A DNA stretch of 31,986 bases from Promethearchaeia archaeon. Lineage in GTDB: Archaea; Asgardarchaeota; Lokiarchaeia; Sigyniarchaeales; SOKP01. Position numbers and translations under genes: made by a program. The stretch is from positions 1-31,986 of the forward strand of contig JAHQWH010000114.1 in NCBI GenBank assembly GCA_029856105.1, written 5' to 3'. Positions 3,638-7,005 of the stretch are shown in pieces (position 1 is the first letter of the stretch; every line of letters starts with the position of its first letter). Below the pieces are notes generated by a model. The model ran no database searches. It was not told the DNA's origin and worked only from the letters and a program-made list of their open reading frames with translations.

Positions 3638-3921
3638 AAAACCTTCAATTTGAAAAATTATTTTGTACTCTTTTTATAAGTTATTTATTACATGCTTGAT
3701 TTCATCAAAATCACTTCTCTATATACTAAAATAATTATAAATCCTCTTTAAAGAATCAGAACAAGAAATTCTTTTGGAAAATTAAAAATTATATCGTATT
3801 TTATCACCTACATAATATCTATTCTCATTTTGGTCTGTAAAATTCCTAATTTTTATATACCTCTTAAGTATAATATTTAGTTAAGCAGAAATAATGATAT
3901 TCAAGATTTATTGAACTTAAA

Positions 3922-5919
3922 GTGGATTCCGACAAAAATATTGATGTTCTAGAGAAACAGCTAAAGATACTAGGTCAAAAAATAAGAATTGACATTTTGA
4001 AAAAATTACATGTCTGTCGTAATCCTTTATCTTATTCAATGCTTCAAAAAGAAGTTTTAGGTGCAAATCCAAACTCAGTTAATTTCTCTTTTCATTTAAA
4101 AGCGCTAAAAAATGGTAATTTAATATCAACTTCCGAGAGTGGTTATACTTTAAGCACGTTAGGGAAACAAATTTTAAAAAATATCGTATCGATGGAACAA
4201 ATCCTCCACGATCAAAACAAACAAATTATGATAAGGACTTCTAAATACTCGAAAGAGCCTTTTAATGCGACCAAAATCGAAGATTACTTGATTAAGGAAG
4301 GACAGTTAGAGAAATATTTAGCAATACAAATATCAAAGGAAGTAAAAGAGCGACTTTCTAAGGCTAATATTGGATACTTAACAACACCCTTAATGAGGGA
4401 ATATATTAACGCAATTCTATTAGAAAATGGGCTAGAAGAAATAAGGCATAAATTAACTCGATTAGGGACTCCTCCTTTTGAAGCCTTCAGTTTTTTTGAT
4501 AGAAACTTCAACCCCGAACAGTTTATATCTAAGTTAGGATCCGATGTGTCTGAACAATTTCTTTTATTAAATTTACTCCCTAAAAACTTAGCGGACTTGT
4601 ACTTATCAGGAGAGATAGCTTTGTTGAACTTAAATTATTGGAGTTTAAGACCCTTAGGGTTCTATCTTGATTCAAATTCAATCGTAGAGTATATCACCAA
4701 GCATTCTTCGATTAATCTTAATAAACTGGATAATAATGCAGACTTTATTAATTTAATAATGAATTTTTTCGATATTTTAACAAAATTCAAGCCTTATTTT
4801 TCTGAAGATCTCTTATTAGGCAATTTTAATAATTCCTTTTTATCTTATTTTAATTCTAACAAAAATACATCAAATAGTCTTAATATCATAATATCCCAAA
4901 TTTTAAAACTCAACAATAGGCAATACGACGAGAAGCCTCACCTTTCTTTAGAATTCTCTTTTTTGGATAATAATAAACAGAATAATGCAGAAAATTCGAA
5001 GACTCATTTTTACAACAACTTTTTAGAGAATTTAATCTCCCAAATCAACCAAAATAATAACCTTATATGTCCCTTAATGCTTTACGATTATTCCGACTTT
5101 CTTAGCTCTAAAAGCGAGTCTGAGAATTTAATAAAAGTTCTCGCTTCAAGTTATCGTAATAATGTTATTTTCTATAAGAACAATCGTTCAAATTTGCTCA
5201 ATTCAACGCTCACAAATGTTCACAAGCTAAATAAGAGCGGCGAAAAAAGAAATAAAATCGTTTTAGACAAAATTCTGATAAATTTACACATGATTGCTAA
5301 AAAATCTAAACAAAACGATGATATTTTTTTCGAAATTTTGCACGAAAAGCTAGATTCTGTGTTTGAATTCTTTGTTAGTAAAAAAAAATTAGTAGATAGA
5401 AAATTAAAATCTTCAAATCATTGGAAGAAAATAATTTCCGAATTTTTTGAGCCAAAAAATGGTGATTGGATTGACGAATCTTTAAAATCCATTAGTTTTT
5501 ATGGTTTAAATGAAGCTGTAAAAACGCATTGTGGTATTGAAATAGATAGAAACGTAAGTAGCGAGGTTTTTGCCCAAAAAGTATTAAATTTTATGATAGA
5601 TATTGTTGATGAAAAAAATCAACTAGAGCATGGAAACTATATTTTAACTCAACCTCATAATGTTAATTACTTATGTAACAAAGGATATAATAATAAACTT
5701 AGTTTAGGAGATGAAACTAAACGTTACAACATAGATTTGATTAGAGCTGATTCAAAATTATCACTTGAGAGAAAGATTGAACTTCATAAGAAATTCGAAA
5801 AAATTATAGACGGAGGGAGCATTTTTACATGCAAATCAAATAACTTACATTTGCTTGAACTTATTGAAGTTTTAATAAATTCTAAATTAAACGCGTTTTC
5901 AATTAGAGCTGAAATTTAA
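3922..5919 (+). CDS. ArsR-like winged HTH + ATP-cone + degenerate class III ribonucleotide reductase (NrdD)-like barrel; probably non-catalytic
   Basis: N-terminal LKILGQKIRIDILKKL...FSFHLKALK...GYTLSTLG (wHTH). IRTSKYSKEPFN...LTTPLMREYINAILLENGLEEIRHKLTRLG is an archaeal NrdD-type ATP cone. NrdD-like segments LSGEIALLNLNYWSLRP, INLHMIA, SISFYGLNEAV and KFEKIIDGG follow. No C-terminal Zn cysteines or glycyl-radical motif. Confidence 0.8.
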   Translation: MDSDKNIDVLEKQLKILGQKIRIDILKKLHVCRNPLSYSMLQKEVLGANPNSVNFSFHLKALKNGNLISTSESGYTLSTLGKQILKNIVSMEQILHDQNKQIMIRTSKYSKEPFNATKIEDYLIKEGQLEKYLAIQISKEVKERLSKANIGYLTTPLMREYINAILLENGLEEIRHKLTRLGTPPFEAFSFFDRNFNPEQFISKLGSDVSEQFLLLNLLPKNLADLYLSGEIALLNLNYWSLRPLGFYLDSNSIVEYITKHSSINLNKLDNNADFINLIMNFFDILTKFKPYFSEDLLLGNFNNSFLSYFNSNKNTSNSLNIIISQILKLNNRQYDEKPHLSLEFSFLDNNKQNNAENSKTHFYNNFLENLISQINQNNNLICPLMLYDYSDFLSSKSESENLIKVLASSYRNNVIFYKNNRSNLLNSTLTNVHKLNKSGEKRNKIVLDKILINLHMIAKKSKQNDDIFFEILHEKLDSVFEFFVSKKKLVDRKLKSSNHWKKIISEFFEPKNGDWIDESLKSISFYGLNEAVKTHCGIEIDRNVSSEVFAQKVLNFMIDIVDEKNQLEHGNYILTQPHNVNYLCNKGYNNKLSLGDETKRYNIDLIRADSKLSLERKIELHKKFEKIIDGGSIFTCKSNNLHLLELIEVLINSKLNAFSIRAEI

Positions 5920-5933
5920 TTGTTTACTACGAT

Positions 5934-6857
5934 TTAATCTGATAAAAGTTCTGCTAAAATCGCCTTTCTCATAGGAATTCCATAGTATGTTTGTTTGAAG
6001 TAAATCGCTTTTGGTGAATCATCAATATCAGGAGAAATTTCTGTGACTCTGGGTAGAGGATGCATAATTTTAAAATCGTCTTTAGTTTCCTTTAGATCTT
6101 TTTTTGTAAAGACATATATATTTTTAATTCTATCATATTCTTCAACGTCGGCAAACCTCTCTTTCTGAATTCTAGTAATGTAGAGAACGTCCAAAACATT
6201 TAAGATATCTCGATATTTTTCAATTTCTTTATATTTTGCTTGTCGTTGCTGTAAGAAATCCCTATCTCTTTTTCGCATCATTAACTCTTTAGGACTTATA
6301 AAATAGACATTTACATCATAATTTGAAAGCAATATCGACAGAGAATGAACTGTCCTTCCAAATTTTAGGTCGCCCATTATCCCAATATTTAAACCGTCTA
6401 GCTTACGACCCTCTTCGGTAATCGTTAATAAATCTAACAAAGCTTGAGTTGGGTGCTCACCGCTCCCTGATCCCGCGTTTATAATTGGTATCTTTGCAAA
6501 TTTTGAGGCAAGTCTTGCTGATCCTTCTAAATTATGTCTCATGACAATGCCATCGCAATAATTTTCTACGGTTCGAATGGTGTCTGCGATGCTTTCTCCT
6601 TTCTTTGTAGAAGAGACATCACCAGAATGGAAGCCAATTACGCTCCCACCTAACCGATGCATTGCTGATTCAAAACTTAAACGAGTCCTAGTTGAGGGTT
6701 CAAAAAATAAAGTCGCTAAAATTTTGCCCTTAAGGAGTTCTGAATTTTTCTTATTTTGAATCATTTCCTTGCCTTTTTTTAAAATATAATCGATATCTTC
6801 TCGCGATAAATCTTTTGCTGATATGATTCCTTCCCTAAATTTCTCTTTGAATGACAT
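5934..6857 (-). CDS. pyrB: Aspartate carbamoyltransferase catalytic subunit
   Basis: FFEPSTRTRLSF, EHPTQALLD, GDLKFGRTVHSL, MHPLPR; ATG at 6857 preferred over TTG at 6869. Confidence 0.98.
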   Translation of the reverse strand: MSFKEKFREGIISAKDLSREDIDYILKKGKEMIQNKKNSELLKGKILATLFFEPSTRTRLSFESAMHRLGGSVIGFHSGDVSSTKKGESIADTIRTVENYCDGIVMRHNLEGSARLASKFAKIPIINAGSGSGEHPTQALLDLLTITEEGRKLDGLNIGIMGDLKFGRTVHSLSILLSNYDVNVYFISPKELMMRKRDRDFLQQRQAKYKEIEKYRDILNVLDVLYITRIQKERFADVEEYDRIKNIYVFTKKDLKETKDDFKIMHPLPRVTEISPDIDDSPKAIYFKQTYYGIPMRKAILAELLSD

Positions 6858-7005
6858 AATTCTTAACAAAAGTTTTAATAAAATTAGGTTATTACTACTT
6901 AAATTATTTTTTATCTATAATATAAAAGAGTTATACAGAACTAATAAAATTTAAAATTTATAAATAATTAATTAGTTTAATTTAAAATTTGTAGTTGTTT
7001 GAAAA

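Follow-up and report, generated by a model that had tools for sequence, protein, structure and literature searches.

The DNA analysed here, from now on the window, is a contig of 31,986 nucleotides (JAHQWH010000114.1, positions 1 to 31,986, of assembly GCA_029856105.1) from a Promethearchaeia archaeon of the Asgardarchaeota. On its forward strand, at positions 3922..5919, it carries an intact open reading frame (ORF) with a GTG start and no internal stops that encodes a protein of 665 amino acids, as a first, sequence-only reading had stated. Upstream of this gene are rpo1C and the genes for L30e, NusA, S12 and S7, with rps7 as the immediate neighbour, and downstream are the convergent pyrB (5934..6857, minus strand; catalytic chain of aspartate carbamoyltransferase), a neighbour conserved among relatives, and the genes for L44e, S27e, a GNAT, TFS and PCNA. 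In the orthologous locus L015 primase and GINS are found further along, in agreement with the earlier description of the setting as one of replication and pyrimidine genes. An nrdG gene is not adjacent, the neighbours being rps7 and pyrB. Judged from its sequence, the protein is a paralog of NrdD, the class III ribonucleotide reductase (RNR), that is catalytically dead and has gained an N-terminal ArsR-type winged helix-turn-helix (wHTH).

The wHTH (amino acids 14-88; 3958..4185, plus strand) had been described as ArsR-like, which Pfam, a profile of the family and the modelled topology all bore out. Pfam recognises it as DUF7347 with 42.1 bits against a cut-off of 27.6, and among 47 diverse family members HTH_20 matches in 30 and HTH_5 in 16. 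The first ~90 positions of the family profile matched the structures of ArsR, HlyU, NolR and CzrA with E values from 4e-5 to 1e-2. An AlphaFold2 model built with a 124-sequence alignment (mean predicted local distance difference test score, pLDDT, 89.1; predicted template modelling score, pTM, 0.79) has in its N-terminal domain the helices 2-16, 20-31, 38-46 and 55-64, strands at 68-77 and a helix at 79-99. This is the ArsR topology a1-a2-a3-aR-b-b-a5, in which four helices are followed by a wing of two strands and a fifth, long helix; His58 in the recognition helix and the wing are conserved in the family. A DUF7347 wHTH is also found on contig C225 of this genome (L012 1498-3213, running off the locus), there fused to an HdrA-like FAD/4Fe-4S protein in an open frame of ~852 amino acids, and wHTH fusions to enzyme-like bodies may be recurrent in this genome.

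The wHTH is followed by an ATP-cone with linker (amino acids 102-185; 4225..4476, plus strand), which is the best-conserved region of the family (VRTS..E.F..KI ... YLTxPLxRE ... RHKLTRLGxP), and by an NrdD-like alpha/beta barrel (4510..5847, plus strand). In the sample of 47 diverse members NRDD was matched in 46, DUF7347 in 46 and the ATP-cone in 38 at E<=1e-3 (best 8e-10). A single-sequence search with the ATP-cone against the sequences of the PDB returned spurious matches only (the SAP domain of Ku70, a designer PPR). Pfam NRDD (PF13597) matches amino acids 197-642 with 54 bits against a cut-off of 26, spanning profile positions 8-480 of 562 and leaving unmatched the last ~80 positions (481-562), which hold the Zn ribbon and the Gly loop; the NCBIfam equivalog for NrdD gives 50 bits against a cut-off of 326. 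When the model was compared with the PDB by Foldseek, the top 36 among the matches listed were all class III RNRs (from P. copri, T. maritima, S. thermophilus and T4), with E values down to 3e-17, TM scores of 0.5-0.65 and identities of 12-14%, and the family profile found the NrdD structure 8P23 with an E value of 6e-44. This agrees with the diverged NrdD barrel of the first reading. In BLASTP against the NrdD of the same genome, amino acids 100-257 aligned with 22-189 (27% identity, E value 2e-15; the cone and linker region) and a second segment, amino acids 448-634, with 421-613. The protein is collinear with NrdD from the cone onward, from which we conclude that it arose from an archaeal NrdD in which the wHTH took the place of the short N-terminus.

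For the catalytic residues we used the roles established for the NrdD of P. copri, in which Cys416 is the thiyl-radical cysteine of the finger loop, Cys171 the second cysteine on beta-1 and Glu581 the active-site glutamate (PMC11226230), and mapped them through the family-profile alignment. At the position of Cys416 the consensus of the family profile is Ser where 8P23 has Cys, and the columns of the CCR motif in the NrdD of the same genome are empty in 124/124 aligned family members, so that the absence of a finger-loop cysteine noticed at first holds for the family; unaligned, scattered cysteines occur near the finger loop in 9/124. Cys171 lies in an insertion for which the family profile has no counterpart, and opposite Glu581 this protein has a residue that is not acidic (Val, by our reading). 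The "HxHDL"-type segment, given before as ALLNLNY, reads IALLNLNY (amino acids 231-238). Of the (I)NLPR motif, 120/124 members retain the Asn. The chain stops right after the last barrel strand, before the Zn ribbon (2 x CxxC) and the RxxGY loop (Gly711/Tyr712 in P. copri), again as first read. As far as these residues tell, the protein, and with it the whole family, is CATALYTICALLY dead, no reductase activity being possible.

Across the family the C-terminus is lost to different degrees. The Zn ribbon is kept in about 58 of the 124 members, and the canonical G-Y or an in-register RxxGY in none. Four grades can be distinguished: a ribbon with a degenerate loop in proteins of 700-800 amino acids (Jord-/Freyarchaeia, Bathyarchaeia); a ribbon only, in proteins of about 650-700 amino acids (from metagenome-assembled genomes labelled Nitrososphaerales and Conexivisphaerales); a relic loop without ribbon; and the Loki type of this window, in which neither is left. 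This stepwise loss of the radical domain across lineages can be read as a record of how the pseudoenzyme originated.

The family is widespread. A relative is encoded in 587 or more species genomes of archaea (Asgard, Bathyarchaeia, Nitrososphaeria-labelled and Culexarchaeia), 625 matching representative clusters were counted at 50% identity, and there are more than 100 close orthologs with 58-92% identity and nearly constant length. The source names include Promethearchaeota, Helarchaeota, Odinarchaeia, Jordarchaeia, Bathyarchaeota, Nitrososphaerales, Conexivisphaerales and Culexmicrobium. In a census of Asgard genomes at least 90% complete, with the first 200 residues as query and counting matches that extend across both HTH and cone, the family was present in 37/101 genomes (7/21 families) and in 24/24 sampled genomes of the family to which this genome belongs. 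Full-text searches of the literature (for DUF7347, HTH/ATP-cone/NrdD fusions and archaeal RNR pseudoenzymes) found no description of the family. Its members are usually annotated as "anaerobic ribonucleoside-triphosphate reductase", a label that in hundreds of genomes, e.g. of lineages labelled Nitrososphaerales, falsely implies a capacity for class III ribonucleotide reduction. In several Asgard lineages and in Culexmicrobium a ~240-amino-acid protein with HTH_3 (XRE-type) recurrently adjoins the long-type members (L098 223-954; L099 5204-5926; L107 6302-7027; L108 654-1382; L109 5106-5834).

The first reading had allowed that this copy might simply be decaying. The ratio of nonsynonymous to synonymous substitutions (dN/dS), determined per domain against six close orthologs, is ~0.2 overall, with 0.01-0.15 for cone and linker (also the most conserved stretch of the family), 0.15-0.43 for the barrel and 0.24-0.43 for the HTH. 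Since the gene is under purifying selection and the homologs have neither the catalytic Cys (0/124) nor a canonical Gly loop, we are dealing with a stable family of pseudoenzymes rather than with a decaying copy.

Working RNR genes lie elsewhere in the assembly, which is 92% complete, and the complete nrdD and nrdG that the first reading had suggested looking for are among them. Contig C191 encodes a complete NrdD of 709 amino acids (468 bits), in which the finger-loop CCR, two pairs of CxxC and RVTGYY are present, contig C63 an NrdG (158 bits), and contig C19, at about 100790-103555 on the minus strand, a class II RNR (nrdJ) with an ATP-cone and an intein. The orthologs of nrdJ vary in intein content, their open frames ranging from about 745 to 1666 amino acids. 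For NrdR no match to TIGR00244 was obtained anywhere in this 92%-complete genome, and its role therefore appears to be vacant.

A link between the pseudoenzyme gene and the two RNR genes was found in a short element, which emerged from footprinting of nrdD leaders combined with reading into the coding region of the pseudoenzyme gene. Exact k-mers common to the three upstream regions, when these were cut at the start codon, were AT-rich noise only. In the leader of nrdD (contig C191, around 112454) CCGACAAAA is the sole invariant block, located 86 nucleotides before the ATG and present in 13 of the 14 orthologous leaders of the family. In the pseudoenzyme gene the same CCGACAAAA lies within codons 3-5 (3929..3937, plus strand). 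These codons are NCC-GAC-AAA in 61/61 orthologs, down to about 40% protein identity, with Ser, Ala, Pro or Thr as the residue at codon 3; in the rest of these genes Asp is encoded by GAC in only 27% of cases, and NCC accounts for only 11-17% of its codon families. That the triplets are invariant despite changes of the amino acid and the use of minority codons indicates a constraint at the nucleotide level. In the leader of nrdJ (contig C19, around 103595), finally, CCGATAAAA is found 48 nucleotides before the ATG. We regard the element as a candidate operator that the pseudoenzyme gene has in common with nrdD and nrdJ. In each of the three genes the conserved TATA boxes predict a transcription start that precedes the element by about 40-50 bp.

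The motif CCGAYAAAA was defined from the pseudoenzyme gene and nrdD, and nrdJ served as independent test. Genome-wide there are 104 sites against 68 expected, 71 of them inside long ORFs. Sense-oriented sites within -30 to +160 of an ORF start number only nine, and three of these nine belong to the pseudoenzyme gene, nrdD and nrdJ; the probability of finding the nrdJ site by chance is roughly 0.003 (assuming about 3,500 genes). Near the nrdD of three Asgard genomes without the family CCGAYAAAA was not found, which is weak evidence, the genomes being GC-rich.

The promoter of the pseudoenzyme gene itself is conserved as well. A phylogenetic footprint of 18 orthologous promoters, from loci whose proteins are ~56-92% identical, showed that the 130 bp upstream of the gene are strongly footprinted. 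They contain a probable promoter (3839..3859, plus strand) with TFB-recognition element (BRE) and TATA box, AAAATTCCTAATTTTTATATA, that is conserved in all aligned orthologs; its part AAAATTCCTAATT occurs 67 times in the genome at <=1 mismatch and is for this reason taken to be a general promoter element. A second conserved block, TATAATATTTAGTTAAGCAG (3868..3887, plus strand), lies around the transcription start, whose position was predicted from its distance to TATA. A conserved box of 18 bp, TATCACCTACATAATATC / TATCACCYACATAWTATC (3802..3819, plus strand), precedes BRE/TATA by about 35 bp and may be a second operator or the site of another factor. We considered TATCACCYACATAWTATC as a marker of a regulon and gave this up: the box is unique in the genome, confined to the gene's own promoter, and the only copy with one mismatch, on contig C64, lies inside a coding region, so that it carries no regulon information.

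From these findings we propose, as the reading we think somewhat more probable than all others together, that the protein is a nucleotide-responsive regulator, similar in function to NrdR, of nrdD, nrdJ and its own gene. The sequence-only reading had suggested a dead RNR scaffold turned into an analogue of NrdR, and this idea gains support from the 9-base element at the gene's own codons 3-5 and in the leaders of nrdD and nrdJ and from the lack of an NrdR match in the genome. The nucleotide pool would be sensed by the ATP-cone through binding of ATP or dATP, perhaps with a contribution from the barrel's old specificity and substrate sites, and the wHTH would read CCGA(C/T)AAAA on the DNA, most likely as a dimer. 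The targets would be the regulator itself, the class III RNR (nrdD) and the class II RNR (nrdJ), whose expression would be tuned to the ATP/dATP pool, or to the wider pool of nucleoside triphosphates (NTPs) and deoxynucleoside triphosphates (dNTPs), as it is by NrdR in bacteria. The location of the site downstream of the transcription start suggests that regulation would most simply be by repression.

Several observations weigh against this proposal. With Pfam PF03477 the ATP-cone of this protein (amino acids 102-173) scores 17 bits and remains under the cut-off of 25.8; we nevertheless accept the ATP-cone of the first reading because 38/47 members match and because the region is collinear with the cone of the genome's own NrdD. 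At nrdJ CCGATAAAA is kept only in the closest genera (6/22 loci), and near the distant long-type members of the family CCGAYAAAA was not found, so that operators there, if any, must differ. No convincing dyad was seen around the 9-mer or the upstream box, and a single 9-mer without clear dyad symmetry is unusual for ArsR-type dimers, which are usually found on palindromes. The element is sense-oriented and within the predicted transcript in all three genes, which fits recognition on the RNA too. It could also be bound by another factor. Finally, it is with pyrB/pyrI and not with RNR genes that the family has its strongest conserved association in the genomes, and regulation of nrdD and nrdJ does not account for this.

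This association is the basis of one alternative, in which the protein senses the nucleotide pool and acts on pyrB/pyrI, through transcriptional control or by interference of convergent transcription, instead of or besides the RNR genes. In the window 14 bp separate the stop codons of the gene and of pyrB, and pyrB is the immediate convergent neighbour in about 76/80 Promethearchaeota loci. The adjacency has lasted in distant, rearranged lineages: the order gene, pyrB (convergent), pyrI and atpF is shared by three more genomes of Asgard archaea and by Culexmicrobium (L105, L106, L108, L099) and occurs as a mirror image in L107; in L110 and L100 pyrB immediately precedes the gene on the same strand, with an overlap or a gap of 4 bp; and in L020 a convergent pyrB has purLFEM and pyrI in its vicinity. 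In 6/12 Asgard genomes outside the Loki family pyrI is no more than 3.5 kb away from the gene. We regard the adjacency as real; it supports a role in nucleotide metabolism. Against a specific role in pyrimidine synthesis stand the finding that the conserved divergent promoter of pyrB and L44e has neither CCGAYAAAA nor the upstream box, and the mostly convergent orientation, in which the genes are not co-transcribed. Nor does the protein replace PyrI. With PF01948 no PyrI was found in the assembly, which is 92% complete; 14/16 congeners and 171/201 genomes of the phylum have it, and the absence here is most likely due to incompleteness. We consider a pyrimidine regulator or partner a possibility of low probability.

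The same low probability we give to a broader scheme, in which the family would be an RNR-derived master integrator of the nucleotide pool in Asgard and related archaea, reading several (d)NTPs via the cone and the vestigial barrel sites and coupling dNTP synthesis (nrdD, nrdJ and itself) to the de novo synthesis of pyrimidines (by pyrB/pyrI, whose neighbour it has remained in several archaeal classes), partly by convergent-transcription interference with pyrB.

Some further observations concern pyrB and its surroundings. For pyrB the ORF finder gives a TTG start at 6869, but the conserved ATG at 6857 (MSFKEK...) is the more likely one. In the family of this genome pyrI is not next to pyrB. 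The divergent promoter region between pyrB and L44e (136 bp; window 6870-7005) is near-invariant across genera, the proteins having diverged to ~80% identity. In the core cluster around the gene intergenic conservation is high in general.

The first reading had also offered a partner that oligomerises with the active NrdD. In a somewhat more general form, the protein would be a nucleotide sensor or adaptor acting at the protein level, in heteromers with active NrdD or on another protein, and the winged helix would serve protein contacts, not DNA binding. Heteromers are conceivable since the barrel is collinear with that of NrdD, and in L110 the gene adjoins a true nrdD. Two genomes, G019 (98% complete) and G030 (100% complete), have kept the dead-NrdD gene, and a search with P0121 found no full-length true NrdD in them, Pfam NRDD detecting in G019 the dead copy only and in G030 pieces of NrdD. 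This weakens the idea of a partner of active NrdD. The HTH, under purifying selection and with conserved His58 and wing, resembles the DNA binders of the ArsR family, and the common DNA element argues for the recognition of nucleic acid. We regard an adaptor as improbable, a little more so than a role in pyrimidine synthesis.

That dead NrdDs without DNA-binding domain can persist, a point in favour of an adaptor, is seen in congeners, which have a third NrdD paralog of ~600 amino acids with ATP-cone and barrel (232 bits), the finger loop deleted, and without HTH, Zn ribbon or Gly loop (L102 651-2441; congener G083, contig C69). Similar frames of ~600-630 amino acids are found in G008, G099, G141, G121, G065, G049, G132 and G057. 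Of the two dead NrdDs this third paralog is the more recent one, and in the present genome (92% complete) no copy of it was found.

Another reading starts from the element and has CCGAYAAAA recognised on RNA, by the protein or by another factor that binds the 5' leader or the first codons and controls translation or stability of the three mRNAs. The sense orientation of the element downstream of the predicted start, at similar distance in all three genes, would fit, as would its overlap with the coding start in the regulator's own gene. On the other side, RNAalifold gave no consensus structure around the element (0 predicted pairs in 11 nrdD leaders), no Rfam family was found in the nrdD locus, and in genus g3 a copy of the element is inverted and about 190 nucleotides upstream of nrdJ, which fits recognition on DNA; ArsR-type wHTH domains are, moreover, DNA binders. 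Recognition on RNA appears to us as doubtful as an adaptor.

Other departures from the canonical NrdD were met in the phylum. In the Asgard family f27 (G123, G203, G207) the NrdD of ~809-814 amino acids matches only profile positions 1 to about 518-553, and separate ORFs of 81-97 amino acids in these genomes match the glycyl-radical domain (positions ~508-561), an arrangement that resembles an NrdD split in two, its radical domains standing free as "spare parts". In genus g6 (G144, G138; L128, L129) the best NrdD match has 624-640 amino acids, covers profile positions 1-506 and has no radical domain; the leader of this NrdD-like gene still has CCGACAAAA at -84/-87, and in g6 the class III enzyme may have been lost and a putative regulatory site kept. 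An apparent HTH on the true NrdD of Asgard family f7 turned out to be a read-through of the stop codon into an upstream thioredoxin-like gene.

A radical domain supplied in trans, by which the protein of the window could still be a reductase, has a precedent in the phylum in the split arrangements of f27, and it is refuted for practical purposes, and very improbable in our view, because thiyl-radical Cys, beta-1 Cys and active-site Glu are all missing and a glycyl radical would have no acceptor.

We know of no account of how dNTP supply is regulated in most archaea, including the Asgard relatives of eukaryotes, and to our knowledge the bacterial NrdR is missing from most of them. If the proposal that the protein is a nucleotide-responsive regulator of RNR genes is true, the family would fill this gap, and a radical enzyme would have become a ligand-sensing transcription factor, convergent with NrdR in its logic and assembled from other parts. 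The conserved 9-mer is a candidate operator that can be tested directly.

With NrdD (T4, 1H7A; T. maritima, 4COI; P. copri, 8P23; S. thermophilus, 9D3X; and the paralog on contig C191) the protein has in common the ATP-cone, the linker and the 10-stranded barrel. It is collinear with the NrdD of its own genome over amino acids 100-634 at 25-27% identity and retains the Asn of (I)NLPR, but it differs in having an added winged HTH and in lacking finger-loop Cys, beta-1 Cys, active-site Glu, Zn ribbon and glycyl-radical loop.

The N-terminal ~95 residues match regulators of the ArsR/SmtB type (ArsR, 6J05; HlyU, 3JTH; NolR, 4OMY; CzrA) by profile and predicted topology. In contrast to these, the sensor would be the fused ATP-cone and dead enzyme rather than a metal site on the HTH, and a palindromic operator was not found in the regions footprinted.

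A parallel in design is NrtR, an experimentally supported bacterial regulator of NAD metabolism that is related to Nudix enzymes (PMC2330246). In both cases an enzyme fold without catalysis would serve as ligand sensor of a winged-helix regulator acting on the same pathway. Folds and ligands are unrelated, and the family described here is archaeal and known from sequences and models.

NrdR is an RNR-specific repressor of bacteria and some archaea (PMC9110341, PMC12176259). Like NrdR, the protein joins an ATP-cone to a predicted nucleic-acid-binding domain, and candidate sites are located at RNR genes and at its own gene. Unlike in NrdR, the DNA-binding part is a wHTH rather than a Zn ribbon and not homologous to it, there is no match to TIGR00244, and the protein is about four times larger, containing a whole dead RNR barrel; the candidate site is one 9-mer downstream of the transcription start, whereas NrdR uses paired 16-bp boxes. 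In NrdR the binding to DNA is governed by oligomerisation that depends on ATP/dATP. The protein would work like NrdR without belonging to the NrdR family, and it is a homolog of NrdD that lacks every catalytic feature compared.

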